Positions 22,547-62,858 are shown, counted from the first letter of the stretch. The stretch is DNA of 63,860 nt from a virus (IMGVR_UViG_3300046366_000135:1-63860), one strand, 5' to 3'. Program-made: numbers and translations. The notes: a model not told the origin generated them from the letters alone.

Positions 22547-22861
22547 TCAAAATTTTTTGAAAGATGTTACAAATTGTTTTGGAGTTTCGACAAAAAAAGC
22601 GGTATCAATATAAGTCCGAGTTTCAGTATTTGTCTGAGTAATTGTGATCCGATAATAAATATCGTTACTCTTAGCACCTAGCATTGTAAACTTGTCAAGA
22701 GCTAGGTGCTCAACAGTAATCAACCCATAAACTGTGTCGGATTGTATCATTGTTCTACGTGGAACATCTTGATTTTTGTATTCTTTTTCACAGGAGAATG
22801 ATAGGTAGGCTATGATGATAGCCCAAATAATTGCAGGAATAAGTTTCTTAAAACGTTTCAT
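22547..22861 (-). CDS. putative lipoprotein
   Basis: MKRFKK + hydrophobic core + LSFS|C lipobox; start taken at the internal Met. Confidence 0.6.
   Translation of the reverse strand: MKRFKKLIPAIIWAIIIAYLSFSCEKEYKNQDVPRRTMIQSDTVYGLITVEHLALDKFTMLGAKSNDIYYRITITQTNTETRTYIDTAFFVETPKQFVTSFKKF
22751..22766. promoter_or_regulatory. parS-like site (1 mismatch)
   Basis: TGTTCTACGTGGAACA. Confidence 0.7.
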
Positions 22862-22862
22862 C

Positions 22863-25175
22863 TCAATGTTTTTTAGGTTTAACAACAAAGTTCAATGTTT
22901 CCTTCGCTCTGGTATAAGCTACATACTCCAAGTTAGTGGCTTGTTCATGCTGCCAATCTTTATCCTTGGGCCTGCGCTTAGTTAAAAGGCTAGGTTCAAT
23001 GATGTAAACGTTAGGCCACTCCAAACCCTTTGCCCGGTGAACTGTAGAGAATAGAATTTCAGGGTTCTTGTCGTCTGAAAAAATTCGACGAATATAAGTT
23101 GTGAGATTGTCAACGGAGGCAATTGTGCCAACTTTGAATATAAGAACTGTAATACAATCCATTTGCTCACTAAACTTGGTGTACAAAGGATTTGAGTAAG
23201 CGTCTTCAGAAGGAAACTTGTCCTCAAGTCGATCAATCAACTGCTGACGTTTTTCATTCATCCTGCGCTGAAGATCACTAAGGCTATTTGACTTGAAGCT
23301 GACAATAAAATTGATTAGGCTCTCACCAATATCTCGGCCCATGATTGTAGCCTTTTTACCTTTTGCGATCATGTCATAACACCCCTCAATCAGTGGAGCA
23401 TTATTCCGGCAAAGTACAGCATCACCAGCTTTGATATTGTCCAAAGTAGTCCCACCACGAACAAGACCTTCTTTGGCATTCTCCCATGCCTTAATGTCTG
23501 GGTCAATCTTATTTACGTACTTAATAACTTCTTTGGGACAACGGAAACAAGTGTTTAGAGACATTACTTTGCATTGAGCTGAGAATGTGTCAAAACTCTC
23601 AGAGTCACTACCAGCGAAGCCGTAGATAGCTTGGCAATTATGGGTAACTATACTATCAGCAACATAGGTCTGATATTTACTAACCGATAAGCTGTACACA
23701 AACCCATCGTAAAATTCCTTAGATATAGTTGCAGGACACCAATCCTGCTTCAACTCATGACGCTTACCCTCAAAATGAGGCAGTACCAAACAACCATTAA
23801 ATAAATTACAAGCACGAACTTCCATTGGTCGTTTCATGGACAAACACTTCTTACTACCATCATTCAAAAATAACGGGTATTGGATGTCCTTACCAAAAAA
23901 GTCTAAACAATCTAAGGCCCGTCCAGTGTTATCACCAATGAACTTCCAAACCCTATCTACATTTAGCTGTATTTTAGAACCACTAAATAAAGTTTGGGGT
24001 AGGCCAAATTTACCAGATATGGCTTGTTCCATTTCATAAGATTCTGCCCTACTATCATAAAGACCCAAAATCCAACAGCAATCAGCAACCTCATCCCGCA
24101 TTCTCTTAATCAGACCAGATACTTTAGTTTTAGGGTAATCCACACAGCAAGTCCCAATCCTAAAATTATCCCCTCTACGCATCATGTAAACACAAAACTT
24201 ATCCCGTAAAGCAGAAAAAGATGCTATACATATATGGTTAGGGGTATATTTAGAAGTAGCTCCACTAGGCGTACTGCACACAATAAGATCACCTTTATAA
24301 GGTCTTTTTGTTATTCCATCTACCTTCTGCGAGTTGTAGAAAGAGCTATCATTGACACTATAAGCTACCACAGAGTCACCTACTGATAAAGATTCTATAG
24401 GTACTTTCTTGTATACTGAGGGTATCGAACCTCTTAAGCCTTTTTTATAGTTAGACTGACTAAAGTCCTTAACAGTTACCATAGTACCAGCAGGTTGACA
24501 CCTATCCCCAACAGCAAAAAGACGGCCCATAGGCTTTAAAAATTTAAAAACGAGTTCTCTTTGTGCTTTACTAACGTCCTGGCACTCATCCAAGTATATA
24601 TAATCATATTTAAAAATAGGATTCAAATTCCTTACAATTGGCTGACGAATTTGATCAACAAAATCAATATTCTTAATATCACCATCAGCCAATTCAATAG
24701 CTCTTTTTACCACCCGTAACTCATCGTTGGTAAATCGGTATCCGTATTTATCCTGACAGTTTGTAAAATCTTCAGCAGTTTCTACCAAATTTAACCGACA
24801 AAGATCAGTGAACTTTTTCATGTCCCAAAGAAGTTCCCCAAACCCTTCTTGAGATTTCAGCCAAGAAGCCTCTTCTTTGAGAAGGAAATTGTAGATTTCG
24901 GCCATTTTCTTCGTGTTCATCTGAGAACCACGAAGTAAGGAAAATCCAAGCCCATGACAAGTCTTTATGTCAATCCCAGACATTCGCTGGGTAAGTTCGT
25001 CTTTGATGCTGACGTTGAATGCACAGGCTAGTGTAGACTTATTTTTTGGGATAAGTTTAACTGCCTCTACAAGAGTTGAAGTCTTTCCTGATCCGGCTTT
25101 TGCTGATAGTAACACATTACCAGAACCAGAAGTCACTTCGTCAAAAAAGTTCTGCTGCTCAATTGTTGGATTCAT
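22863..25175 (-). CDS. UvrD/Rep-like SF1A helicase containing an intein
   Basis: AKAGSGKT, LDECQD, VGDR|..|CQAIYGFAG, FRCP, HRAKGLEW, YVAYTRA. Confidence 0.93.
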   Translation of the reverse strand: MNPTIEQQNFFDEVTSGSGNVLLSAKAGSGKTSTLVEAVKLIPKNKSTLACAFNVSIKDELTQRMSGIDIKTCHGLGFSLLRGSQMNTKKMAEIYNFLLKEEASWLKSQEGFGELLWDMKKFTDLCRLNLVETAEDFTNCQDKYGYRFTNDELRVVKRAIELADGDIKNIDFVDQIRQPIVRNLNPIFKYDYIYLDECQDVSKAQRELVFKFLKPMGRLFAVGDRCQPAGTMVTVKDFSQSNYKKGLRGSIPSVYKKVPIESLSVGDSVVAYSVNDSSFYNSQKVDGITKRPYKGDLIVCSTPSGATSKYTPNHICIASFSALRDKFCVYMMRRGDNFRIGTCCVDYPKTKVSGLIKRMRDEVADCCWILGLYDSRAESYEMEQAISGKFGLPQTLFSGSKIQLNVDRVWKFIGDNTGRALDCLDFFGKDIQYPLFLNDGSKKCLSMKRPMEVRACNLFNGCLVLPHFEGKRHELKQDWCPATISKEFYDGFVYSLSVSKYQTYVADSIVTHNCQAIYGFAGSDSESFDTFSAQCKVMSLNTCFRCPKEVIKYVNKIDPDIKAWENAKEGLVRGGTTLDNIKAGDAVLCRNNAPLIEGCYDMIAKGKKATIMGRDIGESLINFIVSFKSNSLSDLQRRMNEKRQQLIDRLEDKFPSEDAYSNPLYTKFSEQMDCITVLIFKVGTIASVDNLTTYIRRIFSDDKNPEILFSTVHRAKGLEWPNVYIIEPSLLTKRRPKDKDWQHEQATNLEYVAYTRAKETLNFVVKPKKH
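23637..24500 (-). mobile_element. 288-aa cis intein in helicase motif III
   Basis: Starts CQPAGTMV, block B YTPNH, ends YVADSIVTHN followed by Cys; removal restores VGDRCQAIYGF. Confidence 0.92.
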
Positions 25176-25192
25176 CTTTTTAAATTATAAAA

Positions 25193-25223
25193 CAAAGTTA
25201 CAATTTTAAATCTAAAAAGTCAA
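25193..25223 (-). promoter_or_regulatory. Bacteroidota promoter
   Basis: TTG-N20-TAACTTTG, 18 bp upstream of the UvrD start. Confidence 0.8.
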
Positions 25224-25225
25224 CC

Positions 25226-25729
25226 CTAATTTTTATTTTCTTGAATTTTCTTTACCAAAGCCTCTAGGGCTTGATGGTAGAATGAATTATAAATGTGACG
25301 GTAATCCTTGGCTCCTAGGCCGATTGTTTTGGATTGTTTAGCTGTTAGTCCTAGAGACTTAGATTCTTCGCGCCAGAGGCGTTTCTGAGCCTTTACAGCG
25401 ATTTTAGACAAAGATATGAGATTGTGTAGGAGAAAGTCTAAAGATGTCGCTAACTGCAAAGAATCAGCCATAGGAACGGAAATTTCACAGATACCTTTAG
25501 TACCTACGTCAGAAATTACTGCTTCAGGATTTACAAGTTGAACCATCAATCTAATGCAACCCATAAAGTAAGCTGAGGTATAAGAAATGTATTTAGTCTT
25601 CATCCTTGTTGGGTAAAAAGAAGTAGTCTCAACAGTAGACATTAATTTAACTGCTGCTTCTGCCCATTCATCAAATGTTGTAATTTCATTTGAATGATAA
25701 TAACCTAGAATCTTATCAAACTGTGTCAT
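25226..25729 (-). CDS. hypothetical protein
   Basis: 167 aa ORF. Confidence 0.65.
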   Translation of the reverse strand: MTQFDKILGYYHSNEITTFDEWAEAAVKLMSTVETTSFYPTRMKTKYISYTSAYFMGCIRLMVQLVNPEAVISDVGTKGICEISVPMADSLQLATSLDFLLHNLISLSKIAVKAQKRLWREESKSLGLTAKQSKTIGLGAKDYRHIYNSFYHQALEALVKKIQENKN

Positions 25730-25817
25730 AAGTTAATTTTTTGAAATAGTTAGCCCATAAAGGCAAAAATTACCAGTTCATGTAGTAGTGCATTTTACTT
25801 AACTACAATTACAAAAA

Positions 25818-27233
25818 TTATGATTTTGGGTTACTTTTAGTAACCATGCCCTGAGAATTCAAAGAATACAAAGTACCTTCAAATTCCCATTTCAGTAACT
25901 CTACAAAGCTGTAATTCTTTGGTAGTTTCTCCTTAGCTTTAGAGTCAGGAGCTATACAGTTGAGTTCAAGACGAATTTTCTTTACAAACTTAGCTTTTGT
26001 TTTGTTAAGTTCTTTTAGTAAATTCAATCCTTGAATAGCAACTTGTTGAGAATACCAAGAAGTACCTTTAGATAGCATACACAAAGCTTGATCTAAGCTA
26101 TAATCCTTTCCAGTAAAAACTTTTTTAGGATCAAAATAAGGAGCAAATTGAGTGTATAGGAGATTTGGTTTAGGTTCAGCACCAATACTCTGCAAAAACG
26201 TAGAGGAAAGCTTTGCTTTTCTCGGAGTAGTTGCAGAGTATTGCACCAGTGTAGGCGAAGCCGGAACGGTTAACCTTTTATGTACTGCCCCTTCGCTAAA
26301 GCTCCGGGGCTGAGTAATGTAAGTAAGTTCTCCGACTACGGCTGCGCCTTCGTCTCCACGCTTACTTACATTACTTAGTGAACGTACAAAGTTCTCTTTA
26401 GCTATCTTTCTTCTAAGAGATTTACTTGAATAGCATTTTGTGGGTTTAAAATTCTTGATAATCAAAAGCTTTTCCATTCTCATGGAATAATAACCTTGAT
26501 CGTTAAGTACAAATCTTTGTGGATGATACTTTTCTGGATTTCTTTGTGTATTACCAAATGCTAAACACTCTTGTATGGATTCGACTTTTTTAGACTCGAA
26601 TGTTGGACAAAAATAGCTTTGGTCTTCCATCAAAAAAATGTCAATAGCCTTTTTCCGTTGATTGTGTATTTCAACATGACTTAGGTTAAGGTTTCTGCCT
26701 TGACTTCTTAAAGGATAAAACCCTTGATCACTTGTCATCATAAAGCTAGACTTATTCCCTTGTGTATCTGAGTATAGTCTAGGATCATTCTTATCAGTGA
26801 TCTCAATATTTTTAGCTGTCAGAAGTTTATACTTCTGTTTAGCTTCTTTAGATTTTTCTGTTAAAACAGATTTACCATCAACGATAATTACCCACCTCAT
26901 AAACTCATCAAAGTTTGTAACAAGTCCAAAGTAGTAAGGCATAGCCTTGTAGCTTTTAGCCTTTCCTTCAATTGCCTCAGTTACTTTTATAATGGAGGTA
27001 AGTTTGTATTTGTGGTTGGATTCAGATAGAAGACCTAATTCAATCAAGGTATTTATCCTCTTGTTGATGGTTCTTTTATCTTTATTGATTTTGTTGAGTA
27101 AATTCTTAGCTTGGGATTTGTAGATGTATCCTCCCTTAGCTTGTTGGAATAGCTGGATGTAATAAAATAATTCTTTACCTGCTTTATAGCGGACGAAATG
27201 ATTTACAATTGATATGGGTATATTTTTAACCAT
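25818..27233 (-). CDS. basic DNA-binding protein with winged-HTH-like N-terminus (possible replication initiator)
   Basis: KRTINKRINTLIELGLL wHTH-like segment, very Lys-rich; has own promoter and structured leader. Confidence 0.55.
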   Translation of the reverse strand: MVKNIPISIVNHFVRYKAGKELFYYIQLFQQAKGGYIYKSQAKNLLNKINKDKRTINKRINTLIELGLLSESNHKYKLTSIIKVTEAIEGKAKSYKAMPYYFGLVTNFDEFMRWVIIVDGKSVLTEKSKEAKQKYKLLTAKNIEITDKNDPRLYSDTQGNKSSFMMTSDQGFYPLRSQGRNLNLSHVEIHNQRKKAIDIFLMEDQSYFCPTFESKKVESIQECLAFGNTQRNPEKYHPQRFVLNDQGYYSMRMEKLLIIKNFKPTKCYSSKSLRRKIAKENFVRSLSNVSKRGDEGAAVVGELTYITQPRSFSEGAVHKRLTVPASPTLVQYSATTPRKAKLSSTFLQSIGAEPKPNLLYTQFAPYFDPKKVFTGKDYSLDQALCMLSKGTSWYSQQVAIQGLNLLKELNKTKAKFVKKIRLELNCIAPDSKAKEKLPKNYSFVELLKWEFEGTLYSLNSQGMVTKSNPKS

Positions 27234-27255
27234 TTGCCTTGAGTGTTAAATGGTT

Positions 27256-27298
27256 AAAAAAAAGAATAGGCATCCAAGCCGAATGCTCAGTGCCTATT
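27256..27298 (-). terminator. intrinsic terminator/attenuator in the 5' leader
   Basis: AATAGGCA/TGCCTATT stem followed on the minus strand by C and T8. Confidence 0.65.
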
Positions 27299-27412
27299 GC
27301 TGTTAATGCTCTCAAATAATATATATCAACCTTAAATACGTTACCGTATTTAGTATTAATAGTCGTTAATTTTTTGTAGTTATTTGAGTGCATTAATACA
27401 ATTATTATGCCT

Positions 27413-27443
27413 CAAACCTACGACTATTTGTATTATTATGCAA
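27413..27443 (-). promoter_or_regulatory. Bacteroidota promoter
   Basis: TTG-N20-TAGGTTTG. Confidence 0.75.
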
Positions 27444-27461
27444 GTTTTTAAACAAAAATCT

Positions 27462-27669
27462 TCAAACTTTTTTTAAGTCTTCTCTAATTCTCATAATCAG
27501 CTTACCTAATTCATTTTTTCCTTCTTTAGTTCTCAGGCAAACCCCCCAAAACTTATCTCCCCAATGATTCCCCTCCTCGATAATTGCATCTCCTGTCGCT
27601 TTGAGCTGACTTCTAAAAGGTTCTTTGTTGAACTTCTGTCTCAAACAATCCTCCATAACTTGGAGCTTT
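27462..27669 (-). pseudogene. NADAR (YbiA) family, C-terminal fragment
   Basis: KLQVMEDCLRQKF..LKATGD..EEGNHWGDKFWG..GKNELGKLIMRIR; N-terminal half absent. Confidence 0.85.
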
Positions 27670-27970
27670 TCATAGGCATCTTTCGTGCATTCAGATTACC
27701 TGTTTTTAGGTTTTTTCTCCATATCATGTTATACTTATAATAACTCATTCCATGTGTTATCATCGTAGTCACAAACGGCTGATTACCAAAAAGTACTATT
27801 ATAGCTCCCTGCTCAATAAATTTTGAGTATTCTTTCCATAGCTTTTGGGGGTCTATAATAGAGTCCCACTTATTTTGTGTAGTGCCATAAGGTAAATCAC
27901 ATAGGACTAAATCTACATCCTTTATGTTTTTTAATTCACTAAGGCAATCACCTAGGATTAATTTCATCAT
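27641..27970 (-). pseudogene. N6/N4 DNA methyltransferase, N-terminal fragment
   Basis: GDCL, DLVLCDLPYGTT..WD, IWRK; lacks the SAM-binding FxGxG half. Confidence 0.85.
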
Positions 27971-29147: not shown

Positions 29148-29172
29148 AGTATTTTGATTGTAAAAGTACGAA

Positions 29173-31613: not shown

Positions 31614-32075
31614 ATGTCACTTTCACAAGAATTATGGCCAAAGAAAAAAATGGTCAACGGTAATAAGAAAGGAAAACAAAATGAGTGGTTATTAGCTAGA
31701 ACTTTAACTGCATGGTCAGGTGTTTTATTTACGAGGGTTCCCGGCAGTGGTTCATTCTCAAAGAGAATTGATAATCTTAGGTGTGATATTATAGCTGATG
31801 GGTTCGATTTTGGAATTGAAACCAAGCATTACGCTACTATTACTATGACCAAGATTTTCCAGATTTGGGAAAAGGCTAAAACAGAACATCCTAACCCTTT
31901 GTTGTTTATTAGAACTAATGGAACAAAAAGTTGGTTAATATACTCTGAGATCGATTTCAAAATTCCAAATGTTCCACGTGGAACATTATTTGAATACACT
32001 TCAGAAGAGTGGTTAAAAATGGATTATAAAACCGTATGTAGTTATGTCGAAAATGCTTCCATCAGGCCGTCCTAA
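31614..32075 (+). CDS. Holliday junction resolvase (Hjc-like PD-(D/E)xK)
   Basis: KKGKQNE, RVPGSG, CDII, IETK. Confidence 0.85.
   Translation: MSLSQELWPKKKMVNGNKKGKQNEWLLARTLTAWSGVLFTRVPGSGSFSKRIDNLRCDIIADGFDFGIETKHYATITMTKIFQIWEKAKTEHPNPLLFIRTNGTKSWLIYSEIDFKIPNVPRGTLFEYTSEEWLKMDYKTVCSYVENASIRPS
31970..31985. promoter_or_regulatory. parS site (perfect palindrome)
   Basis: TGTTCCACGTGGAACA, extended to a 20-bp palindrome at 31968-31987. Confidence 0.85.
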
Positions 32076-33288: not shown

Positions 33289-34215
33289 TTACAAGATAAT
33301 TTCATTATGGACTTTGAATGAGTCTTGGAAAACCTCAACACGTGCAAAGCCATGATTCCACTTACTTTTTCCAGCGTACTTAGGGTCTAGCTTACATAGA
33401 CAACCAGTAGCCCAGGCCCCAACATACTCATCGTTCAATTTACGGTCAATGTCTGTTTGAGTCCGGTGGAAGTGGCCAAGTACCACATTTGTCCCAGCTT
33501 TCAAACGAGTCGATCTTGCATGGTAAATTCCTCCTCCAAACATGGATTTATATTCGTGTCCATGAACAATGTGTAGATGACTTACTTTAGCAATTTGGTT
33601 TTCCTCAACATGAATAATTCCCAAATTCTCTAAATCAAGTTTTTCACTCAAACTCAAAGTAATGTCAGACATCTCAGGCGCATTGTTAACCATGTAATCA
33701 ACAAAACGTTTTTCATGGTTCCCCTCTTTGTAGTAAATTGAGGCTTGAGGGAAAAGCTCTCTGACTTTTACAAGAAACTCTTTGGTGATTTTTATTTCAT
33801 CAGACATGGATGGAACATGCTTCCCGTTTTGAAATCTGGAAATCCTCTCGCAGTCCATAATATCACCATTAAGATAAACAGCATTTACTCGGTGATTGAT
33901 TCCATACCTTAGAGAATACAGTAATGCGTCCTTATGATGACGTGGGAAGTGAATGTCTGATAGGACTAAGATATTGTCCCCTTGAATTTCAATAGGAGCA
34001 ATAGCTTCATCAAACCCGTCATCAAAGTCACTAAAAACTGTATCAACCACAAGATCATCATTCAAGTCAAGTTCGTTATTTTCTAACGCTCTGACATAGA
34101 TAGTTGCTGCTCTGGCTTCTTGTTCGGAAATACCTAATTGTTCTGCAATTTTAGTCCTCCCAAAGCCTTGCTTAGCTAATTCAATAGCATTTTGAAATTT
34201 CTCATTCATACTCAA
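33289..34215 (-). CDS. metallophosphoesterase with N-terminal HTH
   Basis: GRTKIAEQLGISE; SDIH, NGDIMD, GNHE, HGH, GHFH. Confidence 0.88.
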   Translation of the reverse strand: MSMNEKFQNAIELAKQGFGRTKIAEQLGISEQEARAATIYVRALENNELDLNDDLVVDTVFSDFDDGFDEAIAPIEIQGDNILVLSDIHFPRHHKDALLYSLRYGINHRVNAVYLNGDIMDCERISRFQNGKHVPSMSDEIKITKEFLVKVRELFPQASIYYKEGNHEKRFVDYMVNNAPEMSDITLSLSEKLDLENLGIIHVEENQIAKVSHLHIVHGHEYKSMFGGGIYHARSTRLKAGTNVVLGHFHRTQTDIDRKLNDEYVGAWATGCLCKLDPKYAGKSKWNHGFARVEVFQDSFKVHNEIIL

Positions 34216-35530
34216 CGGTATAAGTTTCTGTTTTATATCCGCAAGTTAGTGATTTCAGTTTGAAAGTATCAGAAATTTTAGAAATATTTTCAGCAATTTC
34301 TTGGAAATTGTCGTAGAAATACTTACTTTTAAAAGTTGGTGTATATTGTTTTATTTTGAACAAAACATCTTCATAGTGTTCTTTAGCTGAGTCGCCTTGG
34401 CCTGAATAGATACCTGTAATGTCTCCAACAATAGTCATTGATAGTTCATGTGTTCCCAACTTAATTGAGTGCATAAACAAAGCTCCTTTGTAGACTTCAA
34501 CAGTCTTTTCCAAAAGCTCAGTCAATAAAGGCAGCCCATAACCGTATTGCTCATCCCGACCTTTTACTCCAAGATCAACCGACTTCTCAGAAAGCAGTTT
34601 TATGATCTCTTTATTTGTCAATTTAGGACGACATGAAGCTATGATAGCACAGACTGCCCCAGCGTGTGGAGTACTCATACTAGTTCCAGAAATAGTTTCA
34701 AATCCACCATCTAACCAAGTGGAGTAAATAGATTCTCCCGGAGTTGAGATATAAACCTGAGCACCAAAAGTAGAGTAACTTGATCTAGTTAAGGTTTTTC
34801 CTTTTTGCGTCAAAGAGCCAATACCCAAAGTCCATTGAGAACTCCCCGGATAATTAACCCCAGCTTTTCCAGTATTACCAGCAGCAGCAACAGTTAAAAC
34901 TCCCATATCATAGGCTTGTTTCAACAATTTATCTGTACTGTTCCACGTGGAACTTCCACCACCTAAAGAGAAATTGTAAATAACGAAATAGCCTTTAGAG
35001 ATAAATTCCTGGGCTTTTTCATTTGCCCATTTGATGCCTTGGTCAATAACAAATATTGTTCCATTGCCTTTTTCAAGAACTTTTACAGGTACAAGTTCAA
35101 TCAAATCTCGTTCTATCAAAGGCTTACAAAGACCAATATCCATTCCTTCTTTTACCGCTACATAAGAACCAGCTACATGTGTACCGTGACCTCCGTCATC
35201 CTTTTTATTGACAAATGATGAGAATGAAAGTCCTTTATTTGCTGCTTGATTAGCCGGGTGATTGTTATTTCCAGAAGTATCAAATACAAACACAACAACC
35301 TTACGACTTGCTGAAGTTTTGATGTAGTCATAGTTATCCTCAACACCTAAAGCTTTATAAGCCCAGTTCTCAGCAGACAAAGCCCCAATTTGTGGAACCG
35401 TTTCGATAGGCTCCAAAACTACGTCAAAGTTCTTTTGATCTTTGTCTGCCTTTAGTTTTGCAGCAATGATGTGAGCAAGTTGGCCAGAGCCATGAGGGGC
35501 ATTGAGGCCATAACGAATAGCATTAAGCAT
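34202..35530 (-). CDS. subtilisin-family (S8) serine protease
   Basis: Triad FDT, GHGTHVAG, GTSMSTPH; oxyanion AAAGN. Confidence 0.93.
   Translation of the reverse strand: MLNAIRYGLNAPHGSGQLAHIIAAKLKADKDQKNFDVVLEPIETVPQIGALSAENWAYKALGVEDNYDYIKTSASRKVVVFVFDTSGNNNHPANQAANKGLSFSSFVNKKDDGGHGTHVAGSYVAVKEGMDIGLCKPLIERDLIELVPVKVLEKGNGTIFVIDQGIKWANEKAQEFISKGYFVIYNFSLGGGSSTWNSTDKLLKQAYDMGVLTVAAAGNTGKAGVNYPGSSQWTLGIGSLTQKGKTLTRSSYSTFGAQVYISTPGESIYSTWLDGGFETISGTSMSTPHAGAVCAIIASCRPKLTNKEIIKLLSEKSVDLGVKGRDEQYGYGLPLLTELLEKTVEVYKGALFMHSIKLGTHELSMTIVGDITGIYSGQGDSAKEHYEDVLFKIKQYTPTFKSKYFYDNFQEIAENISKISDTFKLKSLTCGYKTETYTVEYE
34939..34954. promoter_or_regulatory. parS-like site (1 mismatch)
   Basis: TGTTCCACGTGGAACT. 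Confidence 0.75.
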
Positions 35531-54786: not shown

Positions 54787-57700
54787 CCGGTTATAGTTTG
54801 TAAGTTTTTACGTCTCGCAGCCTCTAAAGCAGCCTCTCTATATCCTTCAACGATGGCATCAGATACAGAAGAACTTACTTCATCAGCTACAATCGTAGCA
54901 AATCTATCAATTTGGCTGTCCTCTAAGGTCAGTTTATATACTGTAGTTCTAGCAGAACCAATACTATCATTCTGAGATGCTGGAAGAACAAAACCTCCTA
55001 CAGCATAGGCAGCGTAATTAGGTGATCCTTTTTTAGTTCTCAAAGACTCTGCCTGAGCAGCCAAAGAAGCCCCAGCAGGAGTATCCAAAACATGTTTAGG
55101 GATTACATACTCATCTTCATGCACAACTCCGGCTACTCTAAAACCAGTATGATCACGTTGACCTGTAGCAGTAGTATAACCACCGACAGCATATGATCTA
55201 GCCCGGATAGCTGAGGTTTGCAAAGCATACTGACCTGTTAAGAAAGCAAGTTGGATGCCTTTGTAGATGGCATCGAATGGTTGCTTAATCACAGAAGCAG
55301 CAGTCAGGATGTTAATGATACCTTGAGCGTAGCTAATGGCAGCCTGGGCTAATTCAATTTTCTTGTTCTTCTCAAATTGCTCTCTTTTCAGAGCATCAAT
55401 CTTACTAGCTTTCTCTTTTTCCAACCGCTCTACAACTTCTTTGTTGCCTCTAGCGGCTTCAATCTCTTTGTCGTAGTATTTCTCAAGGCTCTTAATCCTT
55501 TCATCGAACTGAACGTTGATTAACTCATTGAGAGAATCACCTAGCCCACTAATTTGAGATAGGGTCAGATCGACAAACGTCAGAATATTCTGAGTCTTAG
55601 CATCCAAAGCAAAAACGTCATTATCAGCCTCAAGTTGGCCTAACTGTTGTAGTTTATCATAGTATTGCCTCTGTAAAATTAACCGTTGTTCTAAGGACAG
55701 CTTGGTATTAGATAGTTGAGTTTCAAGGATTTTTATCTCACCCTCAAGCTCTAACCTTTCTACATTTTTTTGATACTCTTCGTAAGATTTACTTTTAGTC
55801 TGAAGTACCTTTCTATCAGTATCAATTTGAATTTTAGCAATTGCCTCAGCTTCGGTAATTGCTGAGCTAATTCCCCCCAACTTAGCCCTTTCTGACTGAA
55901 GTTGTTTGTCAATATCCAAAAACTCCTTACTACCCTCTTTATAGAGTTGCTTTCTAGCTTCAAGGGTTTGGATTTCAGCAGTAATAGCAATAGCTTTCTT
56001 AGTCTCAGCTAAGACGCGCTCATTAGTTATGGTATCCTCAGCATTTTGATCAGCTAAATCTTTAGCAGTTTTGATACTGTCAATCAAAGGCTGTACGTCA
56101 GTTTCTAATAACGCAGTAAACGAACTATTAGAAGCAGCTCTTTGGAGACGCTTGATAGCATCCTCAGCTAACTTCAAATCCTTCTCGGCCTTATCTAAAT
56201 TACCAACAATTTTATTGATTGCTTCAGGCTTCGCTGACTCAAGTTCTTTTTTAAGACTGGATACTTTTTGTTGATAAAACTCAACACTACCAGCAGCCCC
56301 TCGTACAGCCAAGTCCAAAGAATCTAATGTATCTTGCCATTCTTTTTCAGCAGCATTTATTTTGAAAGTAATATCATAGTACTCAGCAAGAAGGTCTGCA
56401 TAAGGTTTACCTTTTACAATTGATTCTTGGATAGCATTTTTTAGTTCAGTCTGTCTTTTAGTTAGTTTCTCTAACTCACTAGCAGCATCCTTATCTCCTT
56501 TAGTTCCATACTGGAACGAAGCTCTCCTACGAAGGTTATCCAAGTCAAATTTGTCAAAAGACAAGACATCTTTGGGAGCTAGTTTTTTCTCCAAAGATTT
56601 TCTAGCCTCTTCAGCAGATTTTTCCAGAGCTTTATTGTCAAGCTTTAGGTTTTTGTTTATAGTTTTACCGACTCCGGCACTAAAAATACCTAGACCATCA
56701 AGCTGTTTTTTGTTTTTTTCAAGATACTGATCATTCTGAATATTACGTTTGGCAATTTCAGTAGCATTATCCTTTGTGATGTTTTGCTGAGTCTTTTTGT
56801 TAAATTGTTCCATTAATTTCTCCCCAAGTACAAAGTTAGCAACATAAGCTACTGGGTTAAATATAGCTAGTAATTTTTTACCTAGATCAGCAGCAAACTC
56901 AAAGACCTTACGAAGTAATTTTGCAAATTCAGAAGTTGAAGTATAGGCATAGTAAATTGCAGATACTAAAGCCCCAACTGCTACAATAGCTATTCCAATA
57001 GGGTTAGCAGTAATGGCTGCATTCCAAGCCCATTGAACAGCAGTTATAAGTCTAGTAATTCCAGTCAATTTAGAAATATTAGCAATCCATTTACCAATAG
57101 CTACACCTGCATTATAAGCGGTTGCTTTAGAATTAAAAACGATAGCCACAGTAAAAGCAGCAATAATCGGGATTAATGCACCCACGATGGCTTTTACTTC
57201 ATTAAACTTAGCAACAGCCTCTTCCTCGCCTTGAACTAAACGAGCAAAAAACTGAACAATGTCAGCTATTCCTTTAACAAAAGCAGCTATTGGCCCGCTC
57301 TGGGTACTAAATATTGCAATTCCCAGAGTTTCAGTAGCCCCCGTCAATTCGTCAAAGGCACCTTTAAGGTCTTTGCGCATTGCTTCAGCAGTAGCTTTGG
57401 AACTGCCCTCAGCATTATCTAACTCAGCGATTAAGTCAACGAGTTTATCTTCTTGTTTAGCCAGAGCGATAGCAACAACAGAAGCATCTTTTCCAAACAA
57501 GGCGTTAGCAACTGCTAGTTTATTCTCAGCATTATTGATAAGATCAAAGGCTTCTTGCAAACTTCTGCCAGAGTTAGCAGTTTCAATAAAGATGTTGCGT
57601 AATGAAGTTCCAGCAGTAGACGCATCAATACTTTCATCTTTAAGAATAGACAACAAACCCGCAGTTGTTTTTAAATCAACACCCACAGCACTGGCTGCTG

Positions 57701-58790
57701 GCCCAACTATACCAATAGCTGTGCCAAAACTTTGTACATCCAGAGCCCCTGAATTAAATGCTTTAGCTAAAATATCTCCGGCTAAAGCAGCATCTTCAGC
57801 TTTCAATTGGAAGATATTCAAAACACCCCCAATAGTTTCTGCTACTTTAGCTAAATCCTCCCCAGAAGTTGTGGCAATATCTGTACTTACGGCTAAAAGA
57901 CTAGTAATCTCTGTTGCAGTTAAGCCTAATTTACCATAAGCAATGGCTAATGCACCAATTTCTTGTGAAGTAAACTCAGAACTAGCCCCAACTTTAAGAA
58001 TTTCATCCTTCAGAATAGTAAATTCCTCTGGGGTAGCTTGAGTGACGGCCCTAATTGTAGACAACTGACGACTAAAATTGATCGTATTATTCAAAGCAGT
58101 CTTGATTGCTGTATCTAGTAGGCCCACAGCAGCGGTAATACCACCAGTGGCAATACCAAAAGTTAGAATATCGGCCACAGAACCAATAGCCGATCTGTAA
58201 TTACCCACATTTCGTTGGTAAAGCCCTAACTTTTTGTCTAAATCTTGTAGTCTTGTAGCTAAAACATTAGCCTGAGAGGCAATTTGAGTACCTACAGGGC
58301 TATTCCTTACATCCTCACTAAGATTTTTGTACTCATTACGTAGTTTGACTAACTCAGCAGACATAGCCCGGTAAGAGCCAATAGGGAATTGTTGTTTTTG
58401 GAGAGTTCCTTTTAATTCCCCATCAATTTTTGTAAGTTCTTGACGAAGTTTTGATATATTTTTGAGTAAATTTGCACCTACATCAGAATCTCGATCTTCT
58501 TTAACTAGTGTTTGGTACTGTTCTATTAGGTTTTTTAATTCTTGTTTTATAGTATTATAACTTTTCTTTATTGTGTCAGTAGCATCAACATTTTCTCTTT
58601 TAAATTGGGAGGTTAGCCCAATAAGAAAATTAAGGGTTTGTTTTAACGGCTCTAGCCCTTCTTTAGAATCACCCAAAGCAGCTATAGCACTACGAGTATC
58701 TATCAGTGCTTCGTTTAAACTTTGAAGGGTATTTAGAACTACTTTACCATTTGGTAAAGTTATCTCTAAACTAATTACTTTTGCGGCCAT
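54783..58790 (-). CDS. tail tape measure protein
   Basis: 1335 aa helical; RNVGNY, TP901-like core (STAGTSLRN), ANPIG, C-terminal YAVGGYT..GVVHEDEYVIP. Confidence 0.93.
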   Translation of the reverse strand: MAAKVISLEITLPNGKVVLNTLQSLNEALIDTRSAIAALGDSKEGLEPLKQTLNFLIGLTSQFKRENVDATDTIKKSYNTIKQELKNLIEQYQTLVKEDRDSDVGANLLKNISKLRQELTKIDGELKGTLQKQQFPIGSYRAMSAELVKLRNEYKNLSEDVRNSPVGTQIASQANVLATRLQDLDKKLGLYQRNVGNYRSAIGSVADILTFGIATGGITAAVGLLDTAIKTALNNTINFSRQLSTIRAVTQATPEEFTILKDEILKVGASSEFTSQEIGALAIAYGKLGLTATEITSLLAVSTDIATTSGEDLAKVAETIGGVLNIFQLKAEDAALAGDILAKAFNSGALDVQSFGTAIGIVGPAASAVGVDLKTTAGLLSILKDESIDASTAGTSLRNIFIETANSGRSLQEAFDLINNAENKLAVANALFGKDASVVAIALAKQEDKLVDLIAELDNAEGSSKATAEAMRKDLKGAFDELTGATETLGIAIFSTQSGPIAAFVKGIADIVQFFARLVQGEEEAVAKFNEVKAIVGALIPIIAAFTVAIVFNSKATAYNAGVAIGKWIANISKLTGITRLITAVQWAWNAAITANPIGIAIVAVGALVSAIYYAYTSTSEFAKLLRKVFEFAADLGKKLLAIFNPVAYVANFVLGEKLMEQFNKKTQQNITKDNATEIAKRNIQNDQYLEKNKKQLDGLGIFSAGVGKTINKNLKLDNKALEKSAEEARKSLEKKLAPKDVLSFDKFDLDNLRRRASFQYGTKGDKDAASELEKLTKRQTELKNAIQESIVKGKPYADLLAEYYDITFKINAAEKEWQDTLDSLDLAVRGAAGSVEFYQQKVSSLKKELESAKPEAINKIVGNLDKAEKDLKLAEDAIKRLQRAASNSSFTALLETDVQPLIDSIKTAKDLADQNAEDTITNERVLAETKKAIAITAEIQTLEARKQLYKEGSKEFLDIDKQLQSERAKLGGISSAITEAEAIAKIQIDTDRKVLQTKSKSYEEYQKNVERLELEGEIKILETQLSNTKLSLEQRLILQRQYYDKLQQLGQLEADNDVFALDAKTQNILTFVDLTLSQISGLGDSLNELINVQFDERIKSLEKYYDKEIEAARGNKEVVERLEKEKASKIDALKREQFEKNKKIELAQAAISYAQGIINILTAASVIKQPFDAIYKGIQLAFLTGQYALQTSAIRARSYAVGGYTTATGQRDHTGFRVAGVVHEDEYVIPKHVLDTPAGASLAAQAESLRTKKGSPNYAAYAVGGFVLPASQNDSIGSARTTVYKLTLEDSQIDRFATIVADEVSSSVSDAIVEGYREAALEAARRKNLQTITG

Positions 58791-58944: not shown

Positions 58945-59253
58945 ATGGAAAAGAAAGTTTATTTTGCAGATAGCCAGTACGAAGGTGAGGCTGCGATTTT
59001 AGCGGATAATTCAAGTTGGTTAGTAGGCTTGGAATTTTCAGTCTATAAAAATCAGAAACGGTTTACCAAATTATTGGATGAAATTATCAAAGGCTACGAG
59101 TCCAGTCCTTTAGCAATTAAATTAAAGGACTTGTCAAATGACGTATTGCTTTATGAGAATTATTATGAAGAAAGGGGAGAACATGGTTTTGTTGAGTTTG
59201 ATATTTATGAGTATAACCATGCTATTGTAAAAGTAGCAAGACGTAAAGACTAA
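58945..59253 (+). CDS. hypothetical protein
   Basis: First ORF after the promoter. Confidence 0.65.
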   Translation: MEKKVYFADSQYEGEAAILADNSSWLVGLEFSVYKNQKRFTKLLDEIIKGYESSPLAIKLKDLSNDVLLYENYYEERGEHGFVEFDIYEYNHAIVKVARRKD

Positions 59254-59265
59254 AAATCCACAGTA

Positions 59266-59511
59266 ATGAAGGAAAAGTGGAATCTTTGGGTTGAGTTTAA
59301 ATCTGAGATACAATTCAGAAAATTCTTAACCAAAGTCAGAACAACTTCTGCATTGAGGGGGTTTCTATCCTCTAATGATGCCTCAACAAAAATCATGGAG
59401 TTTAGATTTGAACTGAACCCAGAACCATTCGCAAAAACATTCCCAAAATCAGCATGTAATTCTGTAATTTATGCAAAAGAAGGAACAACAGAAAGATTTG
59501 TCATCATATAA
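59266..59511 (+). CDS. hypothetical protein
   Basis: Small-gene array. Confidence 0.6.
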   Translation: MKEKWNLWVEFKSEIQFRKFLTKVRTTSALRGFLSSNDASTKIMEFRFELNPEPFAKTFPKSACNSVIYAKEGTTERFVII

Positions 59512-59523
59512 AAGCTATCATCG

Positions 59524-59829
59524 ATGGAATACAATGAAGAAACTGGGGAAGTGGAATCTATGAAAGTTCATTTCTTAGATTTAGACCCAAATTATGAATA
59601 TCATGTGCAATGGTGTGATGTCATGGTGTGGAGATTTAAAAATGCTCCTTATTGGGCAAAATACCTTTCTATTAATGGTGGAGATGAGGATTGGTTAGCT
59701 ATCTGCACAGTTAAATTCTGGAACCAACAAAATCATTACATCCCTTGGATTGACCGTATGGGAGTTTGTGATGTAGATGTGTTTGAAGTTGATGAAAAAT
59801 TCATGGTCTTTATTGGCTCACACGCTTAA
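59524..59829 (+). CDS. hypothetical protein
   Basis: Small-gene array. Confidence 0.65.
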   Translation: MEYNEETGEVESMKVHFLDLDPNYEYHVQWCDVMVWRFKNAPYWAKYLSINGGDEDWLAICTVKFWNQQNHYIPWIDRMGVCDVDVFEVDEKFMVFIGSHA

Positions 59830-60001
59830 AACCTTGACAATAATGAGGACTTTATTAATATCTGTAATCTACATTATTCTACTCAACCTATGTTACTACA
59901 TACCTGATGAGTTTTGGTTCCATTTTGCTTTGGCACTAATTACCCTTACCTTTATGTCAATAACTCATAGAAATTTTAAAACCAAACCTTGACAATAATG
60001 A
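59829..60001 (+). repeat. 18-bp direct repeat flanking one small gene
   Basis: AAACCTTGACAATAATGA at 59829-59846 and 59984-60001. Confidence 0.85.
59843..59992 (+). CDS. 49-aa two-TM protein
   Basis: MRTLLISVIYIILLNLCYY..FALALITLTF; start lies within the repeat. Confidence 0.55.
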   Translation: MRTLLISVIYIILLNLCYYIPDEFWFHFALALITLTFMSITHRNFKTKP

Positions 60002-60108
60002 AAAAGTTACTTATCTTTGTCTTGATTTTACTTACTTCATGTGGCACTATTCGCAGACCTGATGGCTATCAAGCTAAAGCTCGTTGTGGATACCATAAAC
60101 CTAACTAA
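59998..60108 (+). CDS. 36-aa lipoprotein (not in ORF track)
   Basis: MKKLLIFVLILLTS|CGTIRRPDGYQAKARCGYHKPN. Confidence 0.65.
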   Translation: MKKLLIFVLILLTSCGTIRRPDGYQAKARCGYHKPN

Positions 60109-60111
60109 CAA

Positions 60112-60372
60112 ATGATCACTCAAGAAAATGTCAAAACCGGGAAGGTTCAAACACTAAAAACACTACCTCTGGGCCTTAGTTTTGAAAACTACTCTCTTTT
60201 AGATGTACTAACAGGTACAGTAGAATGGAGACATGGTAGTTTCTATACAACAGCTCCTATCTCAATGGTAGAAAAAGCTAAAGGAGAACCAGTTAATTGG
60301 TGCAAGTTTTGCGAAAAATACGTTGTTAATAAATGTATTTGGCAGTCACAGAAAAAACATTGTAAAGAATAA
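60112..60372 (+). CDS. hypothetical protein
   Basis: Small-gene array; CKFC. Confidence 0.55.
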   Translation: MITQENVKTGKVQTLKTLPLGLSFENYSLLDVLTGTVEWRHGSFYTTAPISMVEKAKGEPVNWCKFCEKYVVNKCIWQSQKKHCKE

Positions 60373-60503
60373 TGTCAGAAATTAAAGGAATACTTGAACT
60401 AACTGCACTATTTAGTACAGGGTGTAAAAGGACTCAAGCAGAAGTTGAATTTCTTGCTGTGGAGGATTTGAAAAATAATTCTGAACTTTATAATAGAATG
60501 TAA

Positions 60504-60800
60504 ATGGCTTTAGGAATCAGACATTTGGAAATTATGGGACATTCTCTTGGGATTAATGTCTATCATGCCATTAATTCTAAACAGAAGAGAGACAAAAAGC
60601 TTCCCGAAGAATACTACCAGAATCGTTTCTGTGCTGGTGAAAACCATGATGATTATGTTGACCTTTTCTATCTTGAGAAATTAGGTTACATGGCCAGAGG
60701 CCGGACTATCAATGAAGGTCAAGATATTCTGTGGTATGTTACTGAGGACGGTAAGGATAGGTTCGAGATTTTATTTCATCAATATGTAAATGCTAGGTGA
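60504..60800 (+). CDS. hypothetical protein (wHTH-like)
   Basis: HSLG..YQNRF..LEKLGYM..YVTEDG pattern. Confidence 0.65.
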   Translation: MALGIRHLEIMGHSLGINVYHAINSKQKRDKKLPEEYYQNRFCAGENHDDYVDLFYLEKLGYMARGRTINEGQDILWYVTEDGKDRFEILFHQYVNAR

Positions 60801-61033
60801 TGAAACAGTGGAAATTAATCAATCCCAGGAAAAATATTAGGTTTGCCGTTATTGAGTTTCAGTGGAATAGATACTATTTGAGATTTGGTTCTAGTCCTTT
60901 CAATAGGGATGGACAAGATTTCAAAACCCTACTCGCAGCGAAGATGTGGTATGGTCGGGAAGTTCAAAGCCCTAAACACTACGAAAGGGCAAAATGGGTA
61001 GAAGTAATTGAAGAATCAAAATCACAAAAATAA
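60797..61033 (+). CDS. hypothetical protein
   Basis: Coupled ORF. Confidence 0.6.
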   Translation: MMKQWKLINPRKNIRFAVIEFQWNRYYLRFGSSPFNRDGQDFKTLLAAKMWYGREVQSPKHYERAKWVEVIEESKSQK

Positions 61034-61209
61034 TGAATAACACACATCAACCTTTAACTTTCCTAGAGGCACTGTTTCTACTTCTAGTTTACATGAAAGT
61101 CACCCATGCAATTGACGCTAATTGGTGGCTAGTAGCTTTACCTCTTTTCGCTCCCTCCGTCGCTAGGGCAATTTATAAAACTTATCAAAAATACAAAAAC
61201 CATGAATGA
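61033..61209 (+). CDS. 58-aa membrane protein (not in ORF track)
   Basis: LFLLLVYMKVTHAIDANWWLVALPLF, resembling the common phage LKL.G.I.WSW..V..PL pattern. Confidence 0.6.
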   Translation: MNNTHQPLTFLEALFLLLVYMKVTHAIDANWWLVALPLFAPSVARAIYKTYQKYKNHE

Positions 61210-61453
61210 TAAAATAAAATTGCCAGCAACGTGGATTTATCCACAAGTTATTAAGGGATGGGTTATTATGACTGATTGCCATCCTAACTCAGGGAATCCC
61301 TATGTTCATTGGAGTTCTTTTTCTGAAAAAAGAAAAGAGGCAATTGAGATATTCTTAGCAGGCACTACAACAGAATGGCAGTGGTGGAGAAAAAAATACG
61401 GCTTTAAAGCTGTAAAAGCAGAATCAACAATTTCAATAAATCAAACATTGTGA
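61202..61453 (+). CDS. hypothetical protein
   Basis: Coupled ORF. Confidence 0.6.
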   Translation: MNDKIKLPATWIYPQVIKGWVIMTDCHPNSGNPYVHWSSFSEKRKEAIEIFLAGTTTEWQWWRKKYGFKAVKAESTISINQTL

Positions 61454-61454
61454 T

Positions 61455-61721
61455 ATGGCAACTATTTATTATGGTACTATCAAAACCGTTAGTCCATTTA
61501 TTGCGTTACCCACCTCAGAAATCAAGAAAATTATTTTTCTCGCTCTTGAGAACTATAAACACCCAGCCTCAGGGTTCAGGTTAGAATCAACTGAGGTTCA
61601 TGTCCAAATAGAAGAACCAGAAAGCGAACTGAAACAGGGCATCCTAACCGGACTCCTGATGGCTAGAGAGCTTTTGAAAAGAGGGGGTGATCTGGATGAA
61701 TTAATCAGTTTAAACCGATAA
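61455..61721 (+). CDS. hypothetical protein
   Basis: Coupled ORF. Confidence 0.6.
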   Translation: MATIYYGTIKTVSPFIALPTSEIKKIIFLALENYKHPASGFRLESTEVHVQIEEPESELKQGILTGLLMARELLKRGGDLDELISLNR

Positions 61722-61723
61722 TC

Positions 61724-62698
61724 ATGGAAAAGATACCAATAGAAATCAACAAAGACCCAAGAATATCCTTAGGCTATCCTCATAGGCCAGACGATATGCC
61801 AGAACAGGCACATAATGTTTTTAAATTAAGTCAAATGAGTAATAAAGACCATTTAGATTTTGGGGTTCACCCAAAACTGTCAAAGTATATTATATTAGAG
61901 GATGGAACAATTTTGTACCCTGTAGTAAAAACCAAGAATTCGTTCATGTACCGAGGTAAACAATACGGGATTTGTAATCAAAAAATTAAGGCTGGTACAT
62001 TTAGGGCTAATCTAAGCTTTGATGTGGGTAGGGTGAACCTAGCTTCAGTGTATAGGTTAGTATACCAAACATTTATAGATTCTACTTTAGATAAAAATTA
62101 CCCTATAATTTTCAAAGATGGTAATAGCTTAAACCACCATCGAGATAACCTTGATTTACCAGAGATAAAGCAGATTGACCCTAAATTAGAATATAGGTTA
62201 TTGGATAAATTCCCTGATTATGTTTTCTTTGAGAATGGATTTATTCTACAGAGGGGCTTTGGTAGCTCAGATTTATATAATTTCAATGGTGAGTTATATC
62301 GATCTGCTTCTATAGCTGTAAATCAGGGAGGGTATAAACAGGCCAGTCTAAGAACTAAGAATAACAAATGGATTTGGAAGCCGACTCATTATTTTACGGC
62401 AGTGGCTTTTTTAGGCGAACCTGATAGTTACGATGTAGTTCGGCACTTAGATGGATATAAAAGAAACAATCATTATACTAATCTAGCTTTTGGGAGTTAT
62501 AAAGATAATGCAGAAGACACTATTAGGAATAATTCAGTAACTCATCCTAATGAGAGATTATTACTACCAGAAGAGTGGCAATTATTTAAACATGCCAAGC
62601 TCAGCGGTTTAAGTGATAGCGAGTTAATGCAGAAGTTCCAGTTGTGTAGATATGATTTTAGGCAGATTTTGAAATATCCTAGTCAAACTTTGGCTTGA
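61724..62698 (+). CDS. HNH endonuclease with tandem HNH domains
   Basis: Degenerate RLVYQTF..FKDGNSLNHHRDNL and intact HYFTAVAF..VRHLDGYKRNNHYTNL..N. Confidence 0.85.
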   Translation: MEKIPIEINKDPRISLGYPHRPDDMPEQAHNVFKLSQMSNKDHLDFGVHPKLSKYIILEDGTILYPVVKTKNSFMYRGKQYGICNQKIKAGTFRANLSFDVGRVNLASVYRLVYQTFIDSTLDKNYPIIFKDGNSLNHHRDNLDLPEIKQIDPKLEYRLLDKFPDYVFFENGFILQRGFGSSDLYNFNGELYRSASIAVNQGGYKQASLRTKNNKWIWKPTHYFTAVAFLGEPDSYDVVRHLDGYKRNNHYTNLAFGSYKDNAEDTIRNNSVTHPNERLLLPEEWQLFKHAKLSGLSDSELMQKFQLCRYDFRQILKYPSQTLA

Positions 62699-62842
62699 CC
62701 ACAGTCACTTATTATTTTCGCGTGTGGTGACTAACCACAGGGGTATGCCCTCAGGGCGCGAGAGTGTCCACAAACTCTATCAACTTAATAGACTTTTAAA
62801 AATAAAAAATCCGAACTCAGTAATTAAACCAAGTCCGGTCAT

Positions 62843-62858
62843 TGTTCCACGTGGAACA
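62843..62858. promoter_or_regulatory. parS site (perfect palindrome, intergenic)
   Basis: TGTTCCACGTGGAACA. Confidence 0.85.

Follow-up and report, generated by a model that had tools for sequence, protein, structure and literature searches.

To our knowledge, the Bacillus phage phi29 has no ParB of its own. The parS sites of phi29 and of Nf, another Bacillus phage, are bound by the ParB of the host (Spo0J), and the phage genome becomes entrapped in the spore. For phi29, five parS sites have been described, and Spo0J helps to segregate the genome into the prespore (PMC2731898). Co-option of a host protein through cis-acting sites alone is also described for the Spo0A boxes of phi29, the CtrA boxes of phages of Alphaproteobacteria, and LexA sites (PMC9437464). 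With the P1 ParAB-parS, N15 SopAB and KorB cassettes, too, an extrachromosomal viral genome carries a centromere-like site, and these elements encode both ParA and ParB themselves. Plasmid and phage par systems of this kind each have a private centromere, so that cross-talk with the system of the host is avoided. Beyond phi29 and Nf, we found no description in the literature of ParB-less phages bearing host parS sites.

The DNA that we analysed (the window) is the whole virus record IMGVR_UViG_3300046366_000135, a linear stretch of 63,860 nt for which CheckV estimates a completeness of 85%. It belongs to a tailed phage of virulent appearance, which occurs in freshwater metagenomes and encodes its own polymerase and helicases. 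It also encodes a DNA_methylase C5 enzyme and three HNH endonucleases, and the window holds no specific sign of a carrier state. Many ORFs lack a family, including ten early ones at 58945-61721 and several large ones; the candidate major capsid protein gene (MCP, 46354-47559) gave no tblastn match, and neither tRNA genes nor Rfam families were found in the window. Relatives of the phage's proteins are known at 58-92% identity. At the level of loci, a Megablast search with 20 kb against a phage collection returned no match, and searches for related loci found none either in viral contigs (S8 protease, DnaB alignment and S8 alignment) or in metagenome contigs (DnaB alignment and P0014).

The host is probably a member of the Bacteroidota from fresh water, an assignment made from similarity to cultured phages only. 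The head protease matched 133 phage records, 129 of which are phages of Flavobacterium, Porphyromonas, Cellulophaga or Polaribacter, and the best named matches of the large terminase (TerL) were Phocaeicola and Bacteroides phages, at approximately 33% identity. No CRISPR or tRNA link to a host was found.

The initial annotation had reported four copies of a 16-bp palindrome, TGTTCCACGTGGAACA, two of them perfect and two with one mismatch. A scan allowing up to two mismatches returned exactly these four, against a mean of 0.01 in 100 dinucleotide-preserving shuffles, none of which reached four. The sites are palindromes fitting the consensus of chromosomal-type parS, TGTTNCACGTGNAACA; when up to three mismatches to this consensus were allowed, we obtained 11 matches (3.13 expected), the good ones being the same four only. 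The 8-mer core CCACGTGG occurs three times, against 0.16-0.19 expected. Unlike the full 16-mer, the 6-mer CACGTG is neither enriched nor avoided (4 observed vs 3.3-4.4 expected), which rules out avoidance or enrichment of this sequence as a restriction site. Outside the 16-mer the flanks of the sites do not align with each other, so that the sites are not a dispersed mobile repeat, and an origin of this type was discarded. They are spread over 40 kb without clustering, three of them falling within different genes, read in two frames in all, and the fourth between genes (Table 1), in agreement with the gene contexts first proposed, including the different frame in which site 3 is read.

Table 1. 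Positions of the parS and parS-like sites and of the features that surround them.
Feature	Position	Strand	Description
Small lipoprotein ORF carrying site 1	22547..22888	-	Signal peptide and LSFSC lipobox; no Pfam or PHROG family
parS-like site 1, TGTTCTACGTGGAACA	22751..22766		One mismatch; within the lipoprotein ORF, reads VPRRT
PDDEXK_15 / RusA-like Holliday-junction resolvase gene carrying site 2	31614..32075	+	PF24608, E 1.1e-10; phrog_244
parS site 2	31970..31985		Perfect palindrome; in the PDDEXK_15/RusA-like gene, residues 120-124, VPRGT
Subtilase (Peptidase_S8) gene carrying site 3	34202..35530	-	PF00082, E 4.7e-35; phrog_3677
parS-like site 3, TGTTCCACGTGGAACT	34939..34954		One mismatch, at the last base; in the S8 protease gene, residues 193-197, SSTWN
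Terminator-like hairpin and T run	62811..62838	-	4 nt beyond site 4; 11 pairs, 5 of them G-C
parS site 4	62843..62858		Perfect palindrome; intergenic, 27 nt past the stop (62886) of a minus-strand gene

We then compared the intragenic sites with the corresponding positions in related proteins. Three of the four homologues of the lipoprotein (at 81, 52 and 38% identity) carry VPRGT, the peptide of a perfect site, within a linker that is otherwise variable. For site 2, VPRGT is found in four of five relatives, down to 58% identity, and VLRGT in the remaining one. The peptide of site 3 is retained in four relatives of at least 75% identity and altered in those at 70% and 64%; its codons are rare (TCC, 0.09 of Ser; ACG, 0.06 of Thr), with a codon-frequency product of 1e-4. 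The initial annotation had proposed that selection acts on the DNA, and the rare codons of site 3, together with the peptides that diverged relatives retain at sites 1 and 2, make this likely for sites 1-3; conservation was read here from the peptides of relatives only, which protein function could likewise conserve. Contigs from four runs covering positions 22001-36000 were near-identical, with three single-letter differences, none of them within the sites, a variation too low for testing constraint. A scan for terminator-like hairpins found one, against 0.2 expected (Table 1).

The proposed match to chromosomal parS proved exact: the phage 16-mer does not differ in any letter from the chromosomal parS of Bacteroidota, and one-mismatch variants are likewise present on their chromosomes. 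Flavobacterium soli, for instance, has both the perfect palindrome and, in its parS cluster, the exact variant of site 3. At least one perfect TGTTNCACGTGNAACA was present in 73 of 101 sampled Bacteroidota genomes of 2-8 Mb, with a range of 0-5 per genome. In the five genomes that we mapped there are two to five such sites, gathered in a single cluster of at most 4 kb per genome. Four of these five palindrome-bearing members of the probable host phylum encode a TIGR00180 ParB.

The phage itself seems to lack the proteins that would read these sites. Searches of the six frames of the window with five models (ParB_N, HTH_ParB, TIGR00180, KorB and AAA_31/CbiA ParA) gave no match at E values up to 10, and neither a tyrosine integrase nor a serine recombinase was found in the same six frames, in line with the original report of no parAB and no integrase in the window. 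Within the record, estimated to cover 85% of the genome, the phage thus shows no ParB, ParA or integration module of its own, as expected of a phi29-type hijack, and no parA and parB beside the centromere of the kind that makes up the self-contained cassettes of P1 and N15.

The same 16-mer is found in at least 120 viral contigs, whereas two control palindromes of equal composition are found in 3 and 12, an excess of at least 10- to 40-fold. We surveyed 50 parS-bearing viral records of at least 30 kb. ParB_N was absent from 47 of them and present in three; it was also absent from 26 of the 28 records with a completeness of 90% or more, and from all 16 with terminal repeats. No tyrosine integrase was detected in any of the 50, as judged against a tiny integrase control set (2/12 records). 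Most records have one site (41/50), some have two (8/50), and a single one has three. These data suggest that the marker is common in viral genomes without ParB or integrase. In a second phage family, picked independently of the site, canonical parS was present in 61 of the 61 loci covering the spot, and the motif was invariant except for a C/T change at the N position of the consensus. The protein encoded there matched no PHROG family, and tblastn found no counterpart of it in phages. In a synonymous-site test on this family the motif did not stand out: 20 of 127 windows, each spanning five conserved codons, were just as invariant, and the test is hence not significant. From the excess over control palindromes, the rarity of ParB and absence of tyrosine integrases in the survey, and the constancy of the motif in the second family, one could propose that non-integrating phages in many bacterial phyla have been selected to carry a centromere only, without par genes, and that by loading host ParB their genomes travel as passengers of the host ParABS machinery and are inherited through divisions while lysis is deferred; at this breadth we consider the proposal unlikely.

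For the phage under study, we think there are good grounds to regard the 16-mers as selected host-ParB sites. Since the phage seems to encode no ParB, the reader of the sites would be the chromosomal ParB of the host, and by analogy with phi29 this is probably the best reading of them. That their purpose is the inheritance or positioning of phage DNA is possible, yet doubtful on balance. Our favoured explanation as a whole, in which all four 16-mers function as parS sites under DNA selection, read by host ParB and serving inheritance or positioning while lysis is delayed, is a tentative one to which we give slightly less than even confidence. We infer binding, clamp loading and a benefit to the phage as follows. 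From established ParB biology, ParB dimers would bind to the palindrome, form closed clamps with CTP and then slide away from the site along the adjoining phage DNA, and phage genomes would then bear partition complexes resembling those at the host origin. A non-integrating phage could in this way attach its genome to the ParABS system of the host, and under delayed lysis (slow growth, carrier state or pseudolysogeny) its DNA, which would otherwise be lost, would be positioned and handed on at cell division, a non-sporulating counterpart of the Spo0J-dependent spore entrapment of phi29. The interpretation offered by the initial annotation is partly supported: it stands as regards the identity of the sites, the lack of par genes and integrase in the window and likely selection on the DNA, while its use of host ParB rests on analogy and could lead to any of the outcomes that it lists (carrier state, SMC loading or titration).

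Binding by host ParB could also have been selected for takeover: by sequestering ParB, replicating phage genomes would break up the partition complexes of the host and release ParA, and the phage would gain from disturbed segregation, replication control or division. The phage has four sites in 64 kb, against 0-5 in the 2-8 Mb genomes of the host phylum, so that any replication would be expected to outnumber the host sites, and its virulent appearance, its own polymerase and helicases and the lack of a detected integrase fit this scenario too. Nevertheless, the single site of most parS-bearing records would be a weak titration dose before replication, and the role described for the phi29 sites, in PMC2731898, is segregation and not titration. 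Takeover as the selected effect is thus rather improbable, and it is compatible with our favoured explanation: if ParB binds, replication of the phage would unavoidably titrate it off the few sites of the host.

The sites could instead be read by a phage-encoded protein, making the phage self-contained as P1 and N15 are. Around 15% of the genome is missing according to CheckV, and a ParB-like protein or another binder could lie there; alternatively, an unrecognised fold could be hidden among the many family-less ORFs of the window, such as the ten early ones, and three of the 50 surveyed records do have ParB_N. This is at odds with the five ParB, KorB and ParA models finding nothing even at permissive E values, with the 26 of 28 near-complete parS-bearing records that lack ParB_N, and with the sites being the exact consensus of host chromosomes and not a private centromere, so we hold a reader of this kind to be quite improbable.

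Host ParB might also be recruited mainly for loading SMC, so that phage genomes are compacted and individualised or concatemers are resolved before packaging. In bacteria, SMC-ScpAB is described as being loaded at ParB-parS (PMC10197239), and the phage sites extend over 40 kb without clustering; nothing in the content of the window bears on SMC, however, and we consider this very improbable. Finally, that the sites are unrelated to ParB and arose as a by-product of coding constraint, from restriction-modification pressure on the palindrome or by chance is hardly credible: the methylase and the HNH endonucleases of the phage and the conservation of VPRGT as a peptide could be invoked for it, but the shuffles never reached four sites, CACGTG is unenriched, the copies lie in three unrelated genes, two frames and an intergenic spot with rare codons at site 3, and the palindrome equals chromosomal parS letter for letter and outnumbers control palindromes in viral contigs at least 10- to 40-fold.

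If host ParB does load on the phage genome, as we favour, a virulent-looking phage would be using host segregation with four 16-bp sites alone, in a phylum in which we know of no endospore formation. The purpose served in phi29 would therefore not apply as such to this phage, and what phi29 does in sporulation would become one instance of a general means of persistence, positioning or disturbance in dividing cells. The 16-mer would also be a simple sequence marker of such phages in metagenomes. Were the strategy as widespread as proposed above, pseudolysogeny and carrier states would gain a molecular basis that can be recognised in sequence, of which spore entrapment would be one special case. 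There is also a practical side to this, as parS that is added to phage DNA as a label assumed to be neutral may be non-neutral in hosts with a matching ParB.

Among known systems, the chromosomal ParABS centromere (TGTTNCACGTGAAACA type) is identical in sequence to the phage sites and differs in arrangement: chromosomal sites form one tight cluster, while those of the phage are dispersed and mostly intragenic, with no parAB genes found in the window. P1, N15 and KorB elements differ in encoding their own ParA and ParB, of which none was found here, and the site of this phage is that of the host. The Spo0A, CtrA and LexA cases follow the same logic, in which the phage has the cis site and the host protein acts; those sites are associated with promoters and bound by transcription factors, whereas here three of the four are intragenic and the protein would be a segregation clamp. 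The closest likeness is to phi29, from which the idea of a phage carrying host parS without a ParB of its own is already known, so that the novelty implied by the initial annotation was overstated; what is new is host-type parS in a phage of a phylum that, as far as we know, does not form spores. The two phages differ in architecture, and no protein-primed replication genes were noted in this genome of at least 64 kb. Both are classed as lytic or virulent and both have several copies of the host consensus: four here and, in the phi29 record that we scanned as a control, four perfect TGTTTCACGTGGAACA sites in 19.3 kb. Their layout is similar too, with three intragenic sites and one placed after the stop of a gene and ahead of a terminator, in phi29 in the order gene 16 stop, parS (17243-17258) and terminators (17262-17301), and in this phage next to a terminator-like hairpin.

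A motif scan recovered the same four copies of the 16-bp palindrome that the initial annotation had reported, two perfect and two with a single mismatch, and at up to two mismatches to TGTTCCACGTGGAACA the window contained exactly these four matches. Dinucleotide-preserving shuffles (n=100) gave a mean of 0.01 matches, and none of the 100 held four. The core 8-mer CCACGTGG was found three times vs 0.16-0.19 expected, while CACGTG alone was close to expectation (4 vs 3.3-4.4); at three mismatches, TGTTNCACGTGNAACA gave 11 matches vs 3.13 expected, the seven beyond sites 1-4 being poor. When 116 nt around each copy were aligned, the shared part was the 16-mer plus one or two adjoining bases, ruling out copies of a mobile repeat. 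Because the flanks lack similarity, the sites represent four independent occurrences of one DNA motif.

Position of the four sites and of other features of the window
Feature	Position	Remarks
Site 1	22751-22766	one mismatch, begins TGTTCTAC; in a lipoprotein ORF
Site 2	31970-31985	perfect TGTTCCACGTGGAACA; in a PDDEXK_15/RusA-like gene
Site 3	34939-34954	one mismatch, ends GGAACT; in a Peptidase_S8 gene
Site 4	62843-62858	perfect TGTTCCACGTGGAACA; intergenic, 27 nt past the stop codon of minus-strand gene 62886-63407
Terminator-like hairpin	62838-62811	4 nt from site 4, site first
Large terminase	980-2203	
HNH endonuclease	3242-4075	free-standing gene
HNH endonuclease	6903-7271	free-standing gene
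HNH endonuclease	61724-62698	free-standing gene; site 4 lies 145 nt downstream
UvrD-like helicase	22863-25175 (-)	insert at residues 257-513
Helicases, several		one with an intein-like insert
DnaB-like helicase		
DNA polymerase, family-A-like		
SbcC and SbcD		
C5 DNA methylase		
Tape measure protein		
Head maturation protease		
Endolysin		

The exact 16-mer was present in at least 120 genomic stretches from many phyla in a scan of one genome per species, with many Bacteroidota among the matches listed and, among the stretches listed, often 2-5 copies within a few kb. Whole-genome searches of five Bacteroidota gave 2-5 matches each, confined in every case to a single cluster (70 bp to 3.6 kb), and a canonical ParB (TIGR00180) is encoded by four of the five. 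In Flavobacterium soli the perfect palindrome is accompanied by TGTTCCACGTGGAACT, the exact variant found at site 3. At least one perfect TGTTNCACGTGNAACA occurs in 73 of 101 sampled Bacteroidota genomes and more than five in none, and its N was always C or T among the 150 listed of 260 matches; in copy number, the 64-kb phage equals a whole chromosome of 2-8 Mb. Given these clusters, the identity of the letters and the presence of ParB genes, the motif is, as judged from sequence, identical in every letter to the chromosomal centromere of the phylum to which the host probably belongs, which upholds the proposed match to bacterial chromosomal parS.

The assignment of the host comes from three observations. 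Of the 133 phage records matched by the head protease, 129 are from phages of four Bacteroidota genera (Flavobacterium 93, Porphyromonas 18, Cellulophaga 16, Polaribacter 2); the terminase has its best named matches in phages of Phocaeicola and Bacteroides (about 33%); and near-identical DNA occurs in at least 24 runs, those listed being 23 freshwater metagenomes and 1 wastewater metagenome. This points to one of the freshwater Bacteroidota as the probable host. A search of 50,697 phage records revealed no close relative. In the same freshwater runs, the palindrome is all that some other contigs share with the window (at 31958-31989 and 22767), and in one run (X11) two such records seem to carry two palindrome copies, 18 and 30 nt apart; these contigs may come from parS clusters of host chromosomes or from other phages. 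Separately, the ~40 nt at 27863-27903, a short piece of the ORF 27641-27970 common to other DNA of the same metagenomes, is the sole match of many contigs in three runs, which diverge on either side.

Selection acting on the DNA itself had also been claimed, and it is likely here, short of proof at the DNA level. On the coding strand site 3 reads AGT TCC ACG TGG AAC, using codons that are rare in the phage (TCC, 9% of Ser; ACG, 6% of Thr), and the chance of these codons given the peptide is ~1e-4. Relatives were compared at sites 1-3 at the peptide level, where protein function could also account for conservation. At site 2, VPRGT is shared by the window and four of five relatives (identity down to 58%), and the remaining one has VLRGT. 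In a small lipoprotein, site 1 occupies the variable linker that directly follows the lipobox cysteine; among four homologues of the protein (81, 52, 48 and 38% identity) the flanks vary and three have VPRGT, as encoded by the perfect palindrome, with VPRRT in the window itself. Rare codons at site 3 and the retention of VPRGT at sites 1 and 2 thus speak for the claim; the loss of SSTWN at 70% identity and below speaks against it. This peptide is kept in all four relatives at ≥75% identity, is altered to TSTWQ and TSTWE in those at 70% and 64%, and diverges further in more distant ones, which argues that site 3 is younger or dispensable. Population data showed 3 differences in 14 kb and none in any site, and are too uniform to gauge constraint.

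No match to ParB_N, HTH_ParB, TIGR00180, KorB, AAA_31 or CbiA was found in six frames of the window at E up to 10, and the controls gave matches in known genomes. The reported absence of parAB is hence confirmed for the window, which is an entire virus record (63,860 bp, linear by classification) with a CheckV completeness estimate of 85%. Ten small early ORFs (58945-61721) matched no Pfam family at the curated level. Neither a tyrosine integrase nor a serine recombinase was detected in six frames of the window; likewise, neither a portal nor a major capsid protein could be identified there, nor any tRNA or Rfam family. The modules (46354-58790 and 980-2203) stand in an unusual order, with the tape measure gene transcribed before that of the head maturation protease and the terminase ~45 kb from this module, at the far end of the window. 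The insert of the UvrD-like helicase matches Intein_splicing at 24.6 bits (curated cut-off 35.8) and is probably an intein.

The exact 16-mer was found in at least 120 viral contigs, vs 3 and 12 for control palindromes of the same composition (the motif read backwards and with its halves swapped, respectively). In the 120 loci listed all three frames are in use and flanking peptides are mostly unrelated; 98 sites fall inside ORFs of ≥75 aa, as VPRGT (46), FHVE (32) or CSTWN (20). From these contigs we surveyed 50 records of ≥30 kb, allowing ≤1 mismatch to the consensus: 41 had one site, eight had two and one had three, and the backwards control was absent from the same 50. With four sites, the window is the richest among the records examined. 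A ParB_N domain was present in 3 of the 50, and was lacking in 26 of 28 records ≥90% complete and in all 16 with terminal repeats. None of the 50 had a tyrosine integrase (Phage_integrase) or was classed as a provirus. Among 12 records with the swapped-halves control (3 more not covered) there were two integrase matches and three proviruses, a contrast in integrases that is only a hint, the control set being too small. One linear contig of 46928 bp (L025, record G009) has perfect parS at 50 and 46725, near both ends, which may reflect terminal redundancy uncalled as a repeat.

In a second family, of large phages with contigs reaching ~108 kb, parS lies at nt 172-187 of a gene for an unannotated ~308-aa protein, where it reads LFHVEQ. 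Collected through N-terminal peptides outside the site, the family comprises 63 loci (L244-L306; 58-100% identity). Canonical parS is kept in all 61 loci covering the spot, as the perfect palindrome in 59 and as TGTTTCACGTGGAACA in the remaining two, a synonymous Phe change at the consensus C/T position. In this family, a window test of synonymous sites failed to reach significance: 20 of 127 windows were as invariant. The protein fell into no PHROG family, and tblastn gave no match to it among cultured phages.

On the best reading of these data, host ParB would bind all four sites and clamp the phage DNA. From established ParB biology, ParB would load as sliding clamps, and the phage genome would carry partition complexes coupling it to host ParABS. 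The selected benefit would be that unintegrated phage DNA is inherited, or positioned, in cells with deferred lysis; we favour this benefit because of the parallel with phi29, the lack of an integration module and the parS-bearing records without integrases. Titration of ParB would be unavoidable once a phage whose sites bind it replicates, and may itself be the selected effect. Loading of SMC through host ParB is a third option. It is also possible that the reader is encoded by the phage, in the ~15% of the genome estimated to be missing. That the sites are unrelated to ParB is very unlikely, their letters being those of the Bacteroidota clusters.

Binding of host ParB by a phage has a precedent in phi29, whose genome has five parS sites for the host protein Spo0J according to PMC2731898, with the same account in PMC9437464. 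In the phi29 record we found four perfect TGTTTCACGTGGAACA, and 10 matches at ≤3 mismatches vs 1.13 expected. Three of the perfect sites are within genes 10, 15 and 17, and the fourth (17243-17258) sits between the gene 16 stop and annotated terminators (17262-17301). Site 4 of the window is placed in the same way: gene stop, parS, terminator-like hairpin. The principle of a ParB-less phage with host parS is thus already published for phi29 and Nf; full-text searches, with few subscription journals covered, listed no report of natural chromosomal-type parS in other phages. Bacteroidota are not known to sporulate, so the spore-related purpose of the phi29 sites would not apply to the window phage. 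What is new with respect to phi29 is the phylum, together with signs that orphan parS of the host type is common among viral genomes that lack both ParB and integrase.
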